Shown: positions 18,858 through 24,884 of the stretch, piece by piece | Layout of the letters: each line of letters begins with the position of its first letter | How positions within the stretch are numbered: position 1 is the stretch's first letter | Source: a virus | Lineage: Duplodnaviria; Caudoviricetes | Virus record (IMG/VR): IMGVR_UViG_3300031993_000008 | Location: 1 to 64,000 of that record | Strand: one strand, 5' to 3' | Length of the DNA: 64,000 nucleotides | Notes under the pieces: generated by a model | Told to the model about the DNA's origin: nothing | Databases searched by the model: none | Seen by the model: only the letters and a program-made list of their open reading frames with translations | Translations under genes and position numbers: made by a program

Positions 18858-19712
18858 CTACTTGGTTTCTCTTTTGTGGTACTGGTCCCAAATCATATTC
18901 ATCATCCTTTTGACATCTTCATACTCCCAAAAGGTGAAATCAACAAATTCATCACTACTTACAAATATATCAACACAATCCTTTCCACCTTTCATCTTAC
19001 CAGGTTTCATTGTGTATTCTTTTCCAATAGGATCTATAAGTACTGCTTTGTTCAATTTTACATAGACAACGAGAATCATACCCTCTGTCTCTATAATCTT
19101 TTTGATAGATCCCCTGATTTTTATAATTTCAGTATTATTAATTTTTGAAGTGAACTTTGTTTTCAATTCAATGGGTACTTCTATCTGTTCCTTATCAGGT
19201 CTTGGTGGATTTTTATATATAAAGTCACAATAAGTTGAAATCTTGCCACTTCCGGCAGAGGCATTTTCATTTTGTGATAGAATTCCTTTGGTATGATATG
19301 CTATCATCCTTTCAACCACATTACCGCTTTCAACATCTTGCATAAGTTGAAATAATGTCCTTGCACCATAATCTGATGCCGCAAACAGTCTTTCCTGTTC
19401 ATCTGATGGTTGATTTTTAAAAAAGTCATCATATTCTTTTGCATGAACATTTTTATATCCATCCTCATTCATATAGAACAAATCCTTTTTATAATCAGGA
19501 AGTTTCAGCTTTACAGCAACATCATAAACCTTTTTGGGTAAATCACCATTATAACTATATTTCAGAAATTTTGACACCATATCAAAATATCTTGGTGGGT
19601 TCTCATTTCTGCCAATAATATAATTATAAAACCTTTTAACCTTACATACTTCAGAAAATTCAACAGGCATTTTCTTTTCAAAATACATGAATGTATTTTT
19701 TGTCCCATCCAT
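18858..19712 (-). CDS. Putative PD-(D/E)xK nuclease
   Basis: Likely start MDGTKNTF; SGNVVE...CDF...IELKT arrangement resembles restriction-fold active site. Confidence 0.45.
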   Translation of the reverse strand: MDGTKNTFMYFEKKMPVEFSEVCKVKRFYNYIIGRNENPPRYFDMVSKFLKYSYNGDLPKKVYDVAVKLKLPDYKKDLFYMNEDGYKNVHAKEYDDFFKNQPSDEQERLFAASDYGARTLFQLMQDVESGNVVERMIAYHTKGILSQNENASAGSGKISTYCDFIYKNPPRPDKEQIEVPIELKTKFTSKINNTEIIKIRGSIKKIIETEGMILVVYVKLNKAVLIDPIGKEYTMKPGKMKGGKDCVDIFVSSDEFVDFTFWEYEDVKRMMNMIWDQYHKRETK

Positions 19713-19713
19713 A

Positions 19714-20097
19714 TTACTCAACTTTTCCATAATTGTCACTTTCTGAATTAAACAAACCCTCTTCATTGTCTGAATCCTCATCCTCATAAATCTCAACAAC
19801 TGCCTTGTTGAGTCCGCAGAATGTTGTAAGTGTAGTGCAGACATCCTTCCTGGATGAAATGACCATATGGGATCCTGGTCTTGGATCTGCCTTACCATAT
19901 CCCTGGTGATCTACAATAAACCTCTCTTTTCTGTTCATAGGTACTTCTTCATCATCATATTCTTCAAGGACAGCGGTCATAAGAAATCTGTCTGGTCCAT
20001 TCCAGGCCGCGAAATTACTTCGTCCACCTTTTGCATACCAGGCAACAATGGTTCTTGCTGTGCCATCCTTACAAGTATTTATAACTTTCCTTACCAT
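19714..20097 (-). CDS. Stand-alone target-recognition-domain (TRD)-like protein of C5 methyltransferase
   Basis: Two TRD-like modules (DGTARTIVA.Y.K; DVCTTLTTFCG); start overlaps stop of catalytic subunit. Confidence 0.55.
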   Translation of the reverse strand: MVRKVINTCKDGTARTIVAWYAKGGRSNFAAWNGPDRFLMTAVLEEYDDEEVPMNRKERFIVDHQGYGKADPRPGSHMVISSRKDVCTTLTTFCGLNKAVVEIYEDEDSDNEEGLFNSESDNYGKVE

Positions 20098-20834
20098 AAT
20101 GTCTCATCCTCCAGTTCAATATCCTCACCTTCATCATCTGGATATTCCTGGTTCATAATCTCAACATACTTGTCAGATACTTCCTGAGCCATATAATACT
20201 TCTTGGGAACATCATCTTCAAGAATATCCTCAACACTCTTTTCCAGCTTTATCTTATGAGGGAACTCAAAATATGGATTGGGGTCATCCTCTGTCTTTAA
20301 GATGGAGATCATAAATATCCTCTCCCTTGACTGTGGAACACCATAGTCCTTTGCATTGAGAACCTGTGCGAAATTGACATAACCATAGGATTCAAGTTCA
20401 GCACACCACTTGTCAAAGAGGTACTTGAACTTGTCAGTAACCAATGCCTTCACATTCTCAAACATCAGATACTTTGGTTTCTTTGCAAGGATGGTCTTCC
20501 TACACTCCCACAGAAGTGATGACCTGGTGCCAGAACCCTCCTCACCACCAGCCTGCTGACCGGCATTTGAAAAGTCCGTGCAAGGTGAACTGTAAGTGAA
20601 CAGGTCAAAATCCGGAACCTGGGACCAGTCAATCTTGGAGATGTCACCATAATTCCTGTCCTTATACTGAGGAAACAGTGCATTATGGGCTATGATAGCA
20701 GCCTTGTCTATCTCTGACCAACCCACCAAATCATAACAGATTCCCAATCTGTTGAGTGCCAGACACTGGGAATCATAACCTGAAAATGCTGTGAACACTC
20801 TCAAGGGATTCTTTTTTGTATATTTCTTTACCAT
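20091..20834 (-). CDS. C5 cytosine DNA methyltransferase, catalytic half (motifs I-VIII only)
   Basis: FSGYD, SEID, GDI, SSPC, ENV, QSRERIF; no TRD, IX or X. Confidence 0.9.
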   Translation of the reverse strand: MVKKYTKKNPLRVFTAFSGYDSQCLALNRLGICYDLVGWSEIDKAAIIAHNALFPQYKDRNYGDISKIDWSQVPDFDLFTYSSPCTDFSNAGQQAGGEEGSGTRSSLLWECRKTILAKKPKYLMFENVKALVTDKFKYLFDKWCAELESYGYVNFAQVLNAKDYGVPQSRERIFMISILKTEDDPNPYFEFPHKIKLEKSVEDILEDDVPKKYYMAQEVSDKYVEIMNQEYPDDEGEDIELEDETLW

Positions 20835-21046
20835 AATTTCTTGGTTATATTATCCTCTTTCTTCTTAAGAAACAGATTATCAAAGATATGAACCATACAG
20901 TCCACAACAATACTGTTTCCATACATCTTATAAAGGGCATTGTCACTCAAATCTGCATTGAGCATTGTGTTGATGTCCTTATCCTCCACACCCATCAGTC
21001 TTCCACATTCCCTGGGTGTCATTTTCCTGATTCTGTATTTTTTCAT
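20828..21046 (-). CDS. C5 methyltransferase small subunit (motifs IX-X only)
   Basis: RKMTPRECGRLMG...LYKMYGNSIVV. Confidence 0.85.
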   Translation of the reverse strand: MKKYRIRKMTPRECGRLMGVEDKDINTMLNADLSDNALYKMYGNSIVVDCMVHIFDNLFLKKKEDNITKKLW

Positions 21047-21065
21047 ACCTTAAATATAACAAAAA

Positions 21066-21272
21066 TTACTCTACATCATAATCCAGAGTATCAACATCAA
21101 TGTTATTATGGTTAAGAACCTGCAAGAATTCATACACTCCTGCTGAGAATGCATTCTTGACATCATCATATGTATATTTCTTGTCTTCCCTTAAACTCAC
21201 TGCAACAGCAAGTCCCCAGGAATAACCCCTCCACTTATCTTCAATAAACTTATTTAATTTCTCTCTTGCCAT
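21066..21272 (-). CDS. Hypothetical protein
   Basis: ORF in gene run. Confidence 0.55.
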   Translation of the reverse strand: MAREKLNKFIEDKWRGYSWGLAVAVSLREDKKYTYDDVKNAFSAGVYEFLQVLNHNNIDVDTLDYDVE

Positions 21273-21273
21273 A

Positions 21274-21492
21274 TCACTTATTTTTTAACCAATTCTTTAA
21301 ATAATCCGATAGTTCCTTTGCACACTTATCACACAGACAAAAATCAAACCTGTCAATATCCTCTTCACCACCCATACTTCCACCATGCCAGTAATACAGA
21401 CCAAAGTTGATATTACGAGGTCGGTGCCACATCTGAATATCCAATGTGATATCTTCACCACATCTGTCACATGTATATGTTTCCTTTTTCAT
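21274..21492 (-). CDS. Small Zn-finger protein
   Basis: CDRCG...LCDKC. Confidence 0.65.
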   Translation of the reverse strand: MKKETYTCDRCGEDITLDIQMWHRPRNINFGLYYWHGGSMGGEEDIDRFDFCLCDKCAKELSDYLKNWLKNK

Positions 21493-21493
21493 A

Positions 21494-21658
21494 TCATTTC
21501 CAGGTTATAACCAATTCAGAAGGTTTATCCATAACCACCATAGGTTTGTTTTTAAGTGCATATAGGAGTTTATTAAGTCCTACTTCTGCTTCCTTGAGAC
21601 CACATCCAGTCTCCTGTCTTATAAGTTTCAATATACTTATTCTCTCATCGTCTGTCAT
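21494..21658 (-). CDS. 54-aa protein with L7/L12-CTD or EF-Ts-like helix motif (not in ORF track)
   Basis: Hand translation MTDDERISILKLIRQETGCGLKEAEVGLNKLL...; fills the gap exactly. Confidence 0.55.
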   Translation of the reverse strand: MTDDERISILKLIRQETGCGLKEAEVGLNKLLYALKNKPMVVMDKPSELVITWK

Positions 21659-21660
21659 AA

Positions 21661-22002
21661 TCAAAACAATTTTATTTCTTCTTTTGGTTTCCTGTCCTCA
21701 TAGAACATTTCCCTGAATATATTTGTCATCACATCAACAACAATGGAGTTTCCGAAAAGTGAATTGACTACCCCTGGTGCCATGACATCTGTCATCTTGT
21801 CAATATCCTCATCATCCACACCCATCAGTCTTCCTATCTCCTTGGTGGTCATCTTCCTGACTCTCCCATTATCCAGAATCTTCAGGTAACTGTTGGTATT
21901 GTTGTGTTGACCTACACATATACAACGGCAGACCCCATCAGTGTACATTACTGTGTCCTGCTGATGGGGTCCCACCTTTACTATGTGTACATCATTTCTC
22001 AT
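21661..22002 (-). CDS. C5 methyltransferase C-terminal subunit (TRD + IX-X)
   Basis: HQQDTV..TDGVCRCI then RKMTTKEIGRLMG...LFGNSIVV. Confidence 0.8.
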   Translation of the reverse strand: MRNDVHIVKVGPHQQDTVMYTDGVCRCICVGQHNNTNSYLKILDNGRVRKMTTKEIGRLMGVDDEDIDKMTDVMAPGVVNSLFGNSIVVDVMTNIFREMFYEDRKPKEEIKLF

Positions 22003-22501
22003 TCAGAGACACTTCTTTCATTGTGTTTCTGTACTCCTGGAGGTCAAGATTGTCACTTACATATTTGAATGCGGTCACATTCTTGAATCCAAGTGCCATA
22101 ATGTATCCAAGTTCCATATCAAAGAGACAACCAGTCTCATCTGATTTGGTAACAAAGTCTGTACCTGTATAACATCTTACTCCTTCAAAGTCAGAATCAC
22201 TTTCATCAACTTCTTCAAACCATGCACTTGATGTGAATTTAAGATTATATACAGGTTCATTATACTGCACATTAGGATGATAAAGTGTAACAGAATGAAC
22301 ACCATAGAACTTACCTGGTGTAAGGTCTTTACTTCCGGCATATCCTATATTAATTATCTCTATATCCTTTGGAACATCCTTCAATGCCTCAATGACATTC
22401 AATGCACCAACACCTGTAATAAGAACAGGAAACCTGTCATACCCTAGTTTTTTTACGAGAGGCATTTCCTCACTTTCTGCAATAATTACTAATCTTTTCA
22501 T
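21992..22501 (-). CDS. MTA/SAH nucleosidase-like (PNP/UDP phosphorylase family)
   Basis: IIA..EE, TGVG, NIGYAG, TG.DFV, DME, KYVSD motifs of Pfs/MtnN. Confidence 0.75.
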   Translation of the reverse strand: MKRLVIIAESEEMPLVKKLGYDRFPVLITGVGALNVIEALKDVPKDIEIINIGYAGSKDLTPGKFYGVHSVTLYHPNVQYNEPVYNLKFTSSAWFEEVDESDSDFEGVRCYTGTDFVTKSDETGCLFDMELGYIMALGFKNVTAFKYVSDNLDLQEYRNTMKEVSLNEK

Positions 22502-22508
22502 AATTGTT

Positions 22509-22865
22509 TTAATATTGTGCCACTGTTTTAATAAACACTATATCCTTACTTTCAAAAGTATATCCATTTATACACCAGGATGCACCAAACTCAATATTCT
22601 TTCTCTCACCTTTCACCAATTTGAATATTGGATTCGCATCTATCCTTGATGAACAAAGATATTCAACCTGGCATTCATTATTGGTACCTTCATTGAATAT
22701 AATAGGTTTGTCTGTAGGCCAAGTCTTTTGAAGTTTTTTCAGGAAACTGTACCAGGTGTCTTCACCGGATGCCGGAGTCACTCCCATCATATTATCAAAC
22801 TTACACTTAAAATAAATCGGTTCTTCCATATTAAAATAAAGGTATTTCTGGATTTTTTCTTTCAC
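22509..22865 (-). CDS. Hypothetical protein
   Basis: ORF in gene run. Confidence 0.55.
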   Translation of the reverse strand: MKEKIQKYLYFNMEEPIYFKCKFDNMMGVTPASGEDTWYSFLKKLQKTWPTDKPIIFNEGTNNECQVEYLCSSRIDANPIFKLVKGERKNIEFGASWCINGYTFESKDIVFIKTVAQY

Positions 22866-23364
22866 TAAACAAATTTCTGAACATCTCTGTCATCACATTC
22901 ACCACTATACTATTTCCAGCAAGTTTCTTACAGTACTTCTGGGGGACAACTTTCAGGATCTTGTCAGTATCCTCCGGGTCAACATCCATCAGGCGGAATG
23001 CCTCCCTGTCTGTCAGTTCCCTCACCTTGTAGTTTCTGTCCCAGACATAATTGTCCATTGAGAATGTGGTGAGTGTGTTGGCATATCCATCTCCTGTGGG
23101 TTCAGCATAGAAACCCTTTCCGAACTTCTTTCCCTTGTCACCGAAACGGTGTCTTCTCAATTTCTCGTCTTCTGTCCTCTTCTGTTTCAGTATCTGGGGT
23201 GGTTTGATCCCCTCTACAAACAGATAGACATCATCACCTTTTACAGTACACATCATAGGAAGAGTAGTCCTGAGGTACTTCCTTTTCTCCCAGTCCTTTT
23301 TCTTGAAGTACATTTCTTCCGGAACATCCTTCTCGATTATCTCATCCAATGTGGTTACTTTCAT
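22831..23364 (-). CDS. C5 methyltransferase C-terminal subunit (linker + TRD + IX-X)
   Basis: TLDEIIEKDVPEEMYF linker, ANTLTTFSMDN TRD, RELTDREAFRLM, LAGNSIVV. Confidence 0.8.
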   Translation of the reverse strand: MKVTTLDEIIEKDVPEEMYFKKKDWEKRKYLRTTLPMMCTVKGDDVYLFVEGIKPPQILKQKRTEDEKLRRHRFGDKGKKFGKGFYAEPTGDGYANTLTTFSMDNYVWDRNYKVRELTDREAFRLMDVDPEDTDKILKVVPQKYCKKLAGNSIVVNVMTEMFRNLFSERKNPEIPLF

Positions 23365-23645: not shown

Positions 23646-24884
23646 TTATCCAATTCTGTTCATCAATTCCTTTCCTATCCTCTCCACTATTCCGCATACA
23701 AGAGCATTTCCCATCAGAAAACCTCTTTTTTTGTCTGTAGTGCCCTCCGTATGGTTGTCGGGGAACATCTGTATCCTTTCAAGTTCAACCGGCACCAGAC
23801 GGCGGAATTTACCTGTCTCCGGGTCTTGTATCACATGGGTGAATCTGTTGGACACAATGGTCACCTCACTGGTGATGAGTGTTCTTGCCGGTTTGTCAAG
23901 AGGATCAGGAAATGCCATACTTCCTTCTGTGTACATATACTCATGTCCATCCTTGTTTGTCCTGGGTATCTGCTTGGGACCTTTGGCATACTTCCACTTT
24001 GACAGTTCATCATTGGGTATGTAATAATCATCAGTCACATACTTTCTGTCATCACCTTTTACAAGGATATCTCCAAGGGTTGTATATGGTCCTGAATAAT
24101 CAGGTGTGAGTTTGTCTGTATAAACAAGTCCATCAATGACAACACCACCGTTTTCAAATGGGTTGAGGACAACATTCTTCTTGTTGAAGTTGTCGGAAAG
24201 ATTGACAAGGTCTGAACTCAACTTCCTGCCATCAAGTCCCCAAAGACCAGAATCACCCTGTGGTTTTACAGGAAATGCCTGGGCCAATATACCATCCGAA
24301 TACAACCAGGAATCAGGTGAGAATATCTTGAACTCACCTTTCAGGAAAGCGAATATGAATATTCTCCTTCTCTTCTGGGGCATACCATATTCGGCTGCAT
24401 TGATTATCCTCCATTCCAGGTTGTAACCCAGATTGACCAGTGACTGTATAATAAGGGCAAAGTCCCTACCTCTCTGCTTTGATGGTGAGATGAGCATCCT
24501 GTCCACATTCTCAAACAGGAGATACTTGGGTTTCTCCTTCATTTCAGATATAAGTCTGATAATCTCCCACCAGAGAACACCCTTCTTTCCTTCTATTCCT
24601 AATGCTCTCGATTTATTATTTGCAACCGAGTAGTCCTGGCAGCAAAATCCACCAACCATAAGGTCTGCTTCAAGGTTTTCTCCTGACACCTTACATATAT
24701 CATCATTTATAAGAAGATCATCAGGAAATCTCTCCTTATATATATTGGCAGCAAACTGGTCTTTGAGACCAGGCTCCCATTGATTTGCCATAACACACTT
24801 GAAGAAATCCTTGTCTGCCCTGTCAAGACCTACATGGAATCCTCCAACTCCTGCAAATAATTCTATGTATTTACACTTTTTCAT
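23646..24884 (-). CDS. Full-length C5 cytosine methyltransferase, M.Sau3AI-like
   Basis: ELFAGVGG, NQWEP, GGFCCQDYSVA, GIEGKKGVL, ENVDR..SPSKQRGRDFA, GNALV. Confidence 0.9.
   Translation of the reverse strand: MKKCKYIELFAGVGGFHVGLDRADKDFFKCVMANQWEPGLKDQFAANIYKERFPDDLLINDDICKVSGENLEADLMVGGFCCQDYSVANNKSRALGIEGKKGVLWWEIIRLISEMKEKPKYLLFENVDRMLISPSKQRGRDFALIIQSLVNLGYNLEWRIINAAEYGMPQKRRRIFIFAFLKGEFKIFSPDSWLYSDGILAQAFPVKPQGDSGLWGLDGRKLSSDLVNLSDNFNKKNVVLNPFENGGVVIDGLVYTDKLTPDYSGPYTTLGDILVKGDDRKYVTDDYYIPNDELSKWKYAKGPKQIPRTNKDGHEYMYTEGSMAFPDPLDKPARTLITSEVTIVSNRFTHVIQDPETGKFRRLVPVELERIQMFPDNHTEGTTDKKRGFLMGNALVCGIVERIGKELMNRIG

Follow-up and report, generated by a model that had tools for sequence, protein, structure and literature searches.

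How could a C5 DNA methyltransferase work when its parts are encoded by separate genes, with several candidates for the same part? This question is raised by a locus in the IMG/VR virus record IMGVR_UViG_3300031993_000008. The window analysed here is the first 64 kb of this 248-kb record, whose CheckV completeness is 67%. On the minus strand, the gene for a catalytic chain with motifs I-VIII (alpha1) is accompanied by three genes for chains with motifs IX-X (beta-113, beta-177 and a chain of 72 amino acids (aa), hereafter IX-X 72) and by the gene for a 127-aa protein that resembles target recognition domains (TRDs). We consider it fairly probable that this locus of a large gut phage specifies a modular C5 DNA methyltransferase made of several chains, in which alpha1 would be completed in trans by alternative partners.

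Anatomy and conservation of the split genes

A preliminary description of this DNA had assigned motifs I-VIII, and nothing beyond them, to alpha1, and motifs IX-X to three separate genes. Profile comparison bears this out. Alpha1 matches positions 6-219 of the 324 positions of Pfam family PF00145 (E 8e-51) and retains SSPC, FENV and QSRER, corresponding to the catalytic Pro-Cys, ENV and QxRxR of C5 DNA methyltransferases. The S-adenosylmethionine site and the catalytic Cys are on this chain, which has no motif X helix, no motif IX and no TRD. Its 120 best matches in a collection of 5.8 billion proteins are 82-90% identical and mostly stand-alone proteins of 245-248 aa; more than 100 stand-alone clusters of the alpha1 type exist. 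Motif I reads SGYDS, with Asp in the place usually taken by Gly, and motif IV is PCT, with Thr for Gln. These variants are present in 118 and 119 of the 120 homologues, respectively. They are compatible with an intact enzyme, since an intact 386-aa single-chain relative (MT835567; L026:1289-2449) has both.

Each of the three IX-X chains exceeds the Pfam cut-off for PF00145 (Table 1). Their IX-X segments are paralogs with 38-49% identity and a common motif X, GNSIVV...F..LF; R..T.RE and GNSIVV are invariant or nearly so. IX-X 72 is kept as a gene of 71-73 aa in all relatives. Beta-113 (83-91% identity in relatives, about 90 stand-alone clusters) and beta-177 (89-92% identity) are located 0.8 and 2 kb from alpha1, with other genes between. 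As noted in the preliminary description and confirmed by comparison with alpha1, the N-terminus of beta-177 carries its own copy of the linker that follows motif VIII (TLDEIIEKDVPEEMYF versus VEDILEDDVPKKYYM). A search of GenBank phages with the TRD part of beta-177 gave nothing similar. Beta-177 shows a further split in two independent samples (one labelled pig gut), where a 107-aa product has the TRD and another of 52-64 aa has motifs IX-X (L015:3933-4466; L016:2514-3047).

In the order of transcription, the complete single-chain C5 methyltransferase gene is followed by two small open reading frames (ORFs), beta-177, a 118-aa ORF, a gene for a 169-aa protein, beta-113, three small ORFs, IX-X 72, alpha1 and the 127-aa protein. 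The two ATGGTAA overlaps described earlier are both present; among the 21 ATGGTAA sites in the 64 kb, they are the only ones that connect two genuine ORFs. Over the whole 248-kb record, PF00145 matches are confined to alpha1, the three IX-X chains and the complete enzyme.

Table 1 Features of the locus. dN/dS, ratio of nonsynonymous to synonymous substitution rates, given as medians of pairwise Nei-Gojobori (NG86) estimates with dS of about 1.
Feature	Position	Strand	Content or match	dN/dS
alpha1, catalytic chain, 247 aa	20091-20834	-	motifs I-VIII, proximal linker, acidic tail ending LW	0.10
IX-X 72, IX-X-only chain, 72 aa, no TRD, ends LW	20828-21046	-	PF00145 positions 271-322	0.14
Free two-module TRD-like protein, 127 aa	19714-20097	-	module 1, residues 1-52; module 2, residues 56-113; family-less	0.09
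beta-113, 113 aa, compact TRD and motifs IX-X, ends LF	21661-22002	-	PF00145 positions 269-323	0.05
beta-177, 177 aa, own linker, different TRD and motifs IX-X, ends LF	22831-23364	-	PF00145 positions 185-323	0.07
MTA/SAH-nucleosidase-fold protein, 169 aa	21992-22501	-	AlphaFold2 model and PDB fold matches	
ATGGTAA stop/start overlap, IX-X 72/alpha1	20828-20834	-		
ATGGTAA stop/start overlap, alpha1/127-aa protein	20091-20097	-		
Complete single-chain C5 methyltransferase, about 412 aa from ATG	23646-24884	-	PF00145 positions 2-323, E 1e-55; outside the split set	

Relatives were located via the 127-aa protein (three huge-phage contigs of 233-411 kb) and by exact-protein look-ups (contigs up to 377 kb), which gave seven loci from large gut and rumen phage contigs (L006, L007, L008, L011, L013, L015 and L022); the contigs with a labelled source are from pig and human gut. 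The split pieces are separate genes in all seven, and the unrelated genes inserted between them vary from phage to phage. A 133-aa gene lies between alpha1 and the 127-aa protein in L006, L007, L013 and L015, three genes occupy this place in L011, and in L007 and L013 the IX-X chain is separated from alpha1 by a 238-aa and an 80-aa gene. None of the inserted genes belongs to a homing endonuclease or other Pfam family. Because unrelated genes separate the pieces in relatives, read-through or frameshifting at the junctions is not required.

The pairwise dN/dS values are low for all five pieces, between 0.05 and 0.14. No other proteins of the region are as conserved as the beta chains, with 83-92% identity versus 40-55% for flanking ORFs. 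The segment from 18.8 to 25 kb contains no run of six or more G or C, so that a phase-variable switch is not indicated here. The split pieces are under purifying selection and represent neither decay nor a sequencing artefact. The preliminary description had argued that simple frameshift decay would not produce this arrangement and had proposed synteny and dN/dS as a check. The argument holds: the pieces show no neutral decay, and in none of the seven loci are they intact single genes.

Inserted genes also begin at an ATGGTAA overlap, their proteins starting MVKN or MVNK (L006:5598; L007:3901; L008:3805; L013:6028 and 7738; L022:8985). The common TTATGGTAAAGAA-like junction may be a site of cassette recombination.

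Catalytic halves and their putative partners

Two relatives that are 94% complete (G001 and G003) each contain seven PF00145 segments: the complete methyltransferase, beta-177, beta-113, IX-X 72, alpha1 and a second split pair, alpha2 and beta2. Two I-VIII halves and one complete enzyme thus stand beside four IX-X chains, too few for every small chain to have a dedicated catalytic half. The second pair sits 42-46 kb downstream of the alpha1 cluster. Alpha2, also present in G002, has 239-242 aa (614 aa with an intein in G001), shares the motif I region of alpha1 and is 56-57% identical to it; beta2 (155 aa) consists of a linker, a TRD and motifs IX-X. Therefore, if all four IX-X chains function as methyltransferase subunits, two or more of them must share a catalytic chain. 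The alpha2 and beta2 genes (L017:1997-3180; L018:528-2836; L019:1761-3302, minus strand) overlap at ATGA in G003 and are separated by a 121-aa gene in G002.

The 248-kb record itself has no further I-VIII half. The second catalytic half of this phage probably lies beyond the end of the record, since its position would fall past the contig end. The preliminary description had spoken of one catalytic subunit shared by several chains: the sharing remains probable, but "one" is too strict, as it holds for the window and probably not for the phage.

The principle of one alpha chain with many putative partners is clearest in L022, from a more distant lineage. Here, a single cluster of about 6 kb contains one alpha1, interrupted by an intein, and four IX-X chains: one like beta-177 (178 aa), one like beta-113 (113 aa), an IX-X-only chain of 71 aa, and a fourth beta chain of 130 aa with a new TRD. 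The same cluster carries a 156-aa nucleosidase-like gene, related in kind to the 169-aa gene discussed below, and the two TRD modules as separate genes of 58 and 67 aa.

In some alpha1 genes (P0104, L015, L022), an intein is inserted exactly before the catalytic Cys (SSP / C...HN / CTDFS), and inteins at the motif IV Cys are also found in alpha2 of G001 and in the complete methyltransferase of L015. The intein loci are P0104, L015:7001-8206, L022:9802-11628, L018:528-2372 and L015:405-2762; the intein in L018 is large (614-aa host protein).

We propose that alpha1, and probably alpha2 as well, would supply the catalytic half, and that three alternative complements would complete the enzyme in trans: beta-113, beta-177, and IX-X 72 paired with the 127-aa protein. 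With its motif X, each of these would close off the large domain, and each would contribute a separate module for reading DNA, so that the resulting active enzymes would methylate different target sequences. The likely purpose would be to shield phage DNA from several host restriction systems. A 70-aa hybrid chain (P0209, P0212), with an N-terminus of the 72-aa type and a C-terminus of the 113-aa type, occurs in many contigs from human gut. This widespread recombinant form suggests that the IX-X parts are functionally interchangeable.

The third complement depends on the 127-aa protein, which had been described as two TRD modules. Its two-module nature is supported, because both parts also exist as separate proteins. 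An exhaustive phmmer search of 1.84 billion representatives retrieved only 15 clusters, all short; some span only residues 1-52 or only 56-113, and the modules occur alone as proteins of 56-67 aa. The two modules end alike (VLEEYDDEE and VVEIYEDED), and each has a core resembling the TL core of the SPR and rho11s TRDs, most clearly in VISSRKDVCTTLTTF...KAVVEIY versus VYSPDGVSPTLTTM...KIAVEYV.

As for its identity as a TRD, the likeness stays at the level of motifs. The protein has no Pfam or PHROG family and no BLAST-level TRD match, and tblastn against phages returned nothing. With a profile of 14 TRD cores, it ranks fourth of 1023 six-frame ORFs with both modules matched, at a marginal E of 0.048; the three ORFs that score higher are a spurious one and the two beta chains that had been part of the training set. 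Alignment to the TRD cores with hhalign is in the expected register and is also marginal (E 0.08). A TRD role is nevertheless argued for because alpha1 and IX-X 72 have no DNA-reading part and because the conserved 127-aa gene is translationally coupled to alpha1. This logical argument is stronger than the statistical one, and the assignment is suggestive, not proven.

Complex prediction, which the preliminary description had proposed, covered one three-chain combination, alpha1 with IX-X 72 and the 127-aa protein as partner. The score was 0.38, with 0.12 for the best control; runs agree in at least 54% of contacts, with a partner predicted local distance difference test score (pLDDT) of at least 47. 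Among solved complexes, 58 of 80 attain the mark used for complex scores, as do 2 of 110 mismatched pairs; at scores of 0.60 or below, it is attained by only 7 of the 80 but by both mismatches. The prediction thus gives weak support to docking of the 127-aa protein with the other two chains.

Origin, known systems and alternative explanations

Alpha1 and all three IX-X segments resemble the same subfamily of full-length phage methyltransferases. The closest single-chain kin of alpha1 is the 386-aa ORF in MT835567 (62% identity). Bacillus phage BMBphi gp034 (340 aa) is 56% identical to alpha1 and 38-50% to the IX-X segments. For the SPR, rho11s and H2 enzymes, identity is 33-35% with alpha1 (BLASTP E 1e-38 to 1e-39) and about 46% with IX-X (E 1e-14). 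The system would thus derive from the single-chain phage subfamily that includes the multispecific Bacillus phage enzymes, and the simplest history suggested by these similarities is that a single-chain ancestor split and its C-terminal part was then duplicated. Searches for fused close relatives, with IX-X joined to I-VIII, with the 127-aa protein inside a long methyltransferase, or as a permuted single chain, found none.

Among known systems, M.AquI is described as working as a pair of an alpha chain (motifs I-VIII) and a beta chain (motifs IX-X) (Karreman and de Waard 1990; Pinarbasi et al. 2002, described in PMC3404938). The likeness extends to the division of the variable region, its proximal part being on alpha and its distal part on beta, encoded by separate genes. 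The one-beta-per-adjacent-alpha arrangement of M.AquI is not found here: several beta-type genes exist per alpha (1:3 in the window, 2:4 per genome in the 94%-complete relatives, 1:4 in L022), not all of them adjacent, and one beta retains only IX-X, a third chain carrying the putative TRD. In E. coli, active enzyme forms from N- and C-terminal fragments of M.BspRI, M.BsuRI, M.HhaI and M.SssI that are inactive by themselves (PMC3404938), and M.EcoHK31I is described as having only motif IX on its small chain (Lee, Kam and Shaw 1995, described in PMC3404938). These enzymes share with the present locus that C5 methyltransferase parts on separate chains can form an active enzyme, but provide no natural case of alternative partners. 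Completion in trans would be consistent with M.AquI and with the complementation of fragments of monomeric C5 methyltransferases (PMC3404938).

The Bacillus phage multispecific enzymes (M.SPRI, M.Rho11sI, M.H2I, M.Phi3TI) belong to the same subfamily, have several TL-core TRDs per catalytic core, as is proposed here, and share the presumed anti-restriction role. However, their TRDs stand in tandem in one polypeptide between motifs VIII and IX, whereas here they are on separate chains, most with their own IX-X. The natural circularly permuted enzymes, among them M.BssHII, M.Alw26I and M.Esp3I, are single chains of type H with the order TRD-IX-X-I-VIII (PMC5944983). As in these, IX-X is encoded ahead of I-VIII, but the order here is IX-X, I-VIII, TRD on three chains. 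Our literature search retrieved no description of one C5 methyltransferase catalytic chain with several natural partners. Two-chain and single-chain multispecific C5 enzymes are known; one core with alternative, separately encoded specificity chains would be new, to our knowledge and in the literature searched.

The exact placement of inteins at the catalytic Cys, in alpha2 as well as in alpha1, counts in favour of completion of alpha1 by alternative partners. Several observations weigh against it. Some beta chains may in reality pair with alpha2, which relatives encode, and the linker of beta-177, which duplicates that of alpha1, fits descent from another alpha/beta pair. The record of this phage is only 67% complete. 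The 127-aa protein by itself is predicted to be disordered, its pLDDT of 43 being too low for a fold search, and it is marginally similar to known TRDs. Finally, a human-gut contig (L020/L021) has the hybrid IX-X gene (L020:8001-8213) with no I-VIII gene within 8 kb.

The points concerning alpha2 can be assembled into a different partition, in which IX-X 72, alpha1 and the 127-aa protein form one three-chain enzyme while beta-113 and beta-177 serve alpha2 outside the window; a catalytic chain would still be shared, but another one. Beta-177 has the architecture of beta2, and the trio is the only translationally coupled set. However, beta-113 and beta-177 are always in the alpha1 cluster, 42-46 kb from alpha2, to which beta2 is adjacent, and in L022 all four IX-X chains flank alpha1; we judge this partition unlikely. 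The small TRD and IX-X proteins could also have been conserved for another role, such as binding DNA at specific sequences, regulation, or blocking the methyltransferases or restriction enzymes of the host, given that purifying selection reveals function without telling which one. The isolated hybrid gene of L020/L021 would suit such a role. It is made improbable by the retention of R..T.RE and GNSIVV, motif IX and X residues meaningful only within the methyltransferase fold, by the co-occurrence of the small chains with alpha1 in seven loci, and by the 72-aa chain, which has no part for reading DNA.

It is highly improbable that the pieces are functionless remains of methyltransferase genes that mobile elements or frameshifts have disrupted. 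Inteins and inserted genes do indicate that mobile DNA hits the region frequently, and beta-177 has been broken once more in L015 and L016, but the low dN/dS values were obtained at near-saturated dS, lengths and starts are conserved over more than 100 clusters, and gut or rumen samples from pig, human and other sources contain phages with the same split. Joining of the pieces after transcription, by frameshifting at ATGGTAA, by RNA splicing or by protein trans-splicing, is scarcely credible either. The ATGGTAA junctions do set the downstream frame at -1 and inteins do occur in the family; against this, there is no slippery site, the pieces have no split-intein halves, one to three whole genes lie between them in relatives, and other lineages have TGGTGA and further junction types. 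RNA splicing was dropped as a candidate because Rfam detected no intron or other RNA family in the window region or in three relatives.

If alpha1 is indeed completed by alternative chains, huge phages would possess a cheap evolutionary route to multi-specific anti-restriction methylation, and many "truncated methylase" annotations in metagenomes would be accounted for. Such pieces would also provide the engineering of targeted DNA methylation with split halves already optimised by nature; laboratory split C5 methyltransferase fragments have poor solubility and assembly (PMC3404938, PMC5944983).

Accessory genes and C-terminal tails

The 169-aa gene lies inside the cluster, its end overlapping the start of beta-113, and is present in six of the seven relatives, being absent from L015/L016. 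Its product has no Pfam, PHROG or PDB sequence match. In the AlphaFold2 model (pLDDT 80), it has the fold of methylthioadenosine/S-adenosylhomocysteine nucleosidases (MTANs): the 50 best PDB matches in Foldseek consist entirely of MTANs and the related futalosine hydrolase (TM about 0.6, E about 3e-6), and an atlas feature search gave a match to PNP_UDP_1. The invariant residues E9/E11/E12, D128-M129-E130 and S149-D150 sit where the equivalents of E. coli Glu12, Glu174 and Asp197 are expected, as judged by eye only. Such an enzyme would clear S-adenosylhomocysteine, the inhibitory product, a predicted activity that fits a locus of heavy methylation.

A further shared trait is the near-universal ending of the chains in L-W or L-F (20091-20096, 20828-20833, 21661-21669 and 22831-22839 in the window). 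LW ends 118 of 120 alpha1 homologues, with variable preceding residues, and six of seven chains in L022; LF or LW ends 53 of 57 beta-113 homologues. The background among other ORFs in the window is 4 of 87. The ATGGTAA overlap does not force this ending, because it persists under every type of stop/start overlap. In alpha1 and the 127-aa protein, the tail ahead of LW is strongly acidic. Single-chain and beta-type relatives end QLELF or QLTLF, which fits QL[S/D]LF, the C-terminal consensus for beta-clamp binding (PMC3716654). No phage-encoded clamp (PF02916, PF00712) was found in G000, G001 or G003. It is conceivable, though doubtful, that two catalytic chains, four IX-X chains and free TRD modules form a combinatorial system, whose L-W/L-F tails would be docking peptides derived from QLxLF, the host sliding clamp or another common platform gathering the chains on newly replicated DNA.

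Megablast of the region against GenBank phages gave no match. Hypermodification of 5-methylcytosine via TET is not indicated, since a search for TET/JBP dioxygenases found none. A 287-aa gene without a Pfam family (18858-19721, minus strand) begins right after the 127-aa gene and is 54-56% identical in relatives. The complete C5 methyltransferase is conserved in relatives; in the window, Cys replaces the conserved Pro of its motif IV (FCCQ; GGFCCQDYS). Between this gene and beta-177, relatives have a NADAR-domain gene (L006:1366-1848; L011:3146-3652; L013:2569-3075), absent from the window, at whose position L015 carries an N6_N4 methyltransferase.

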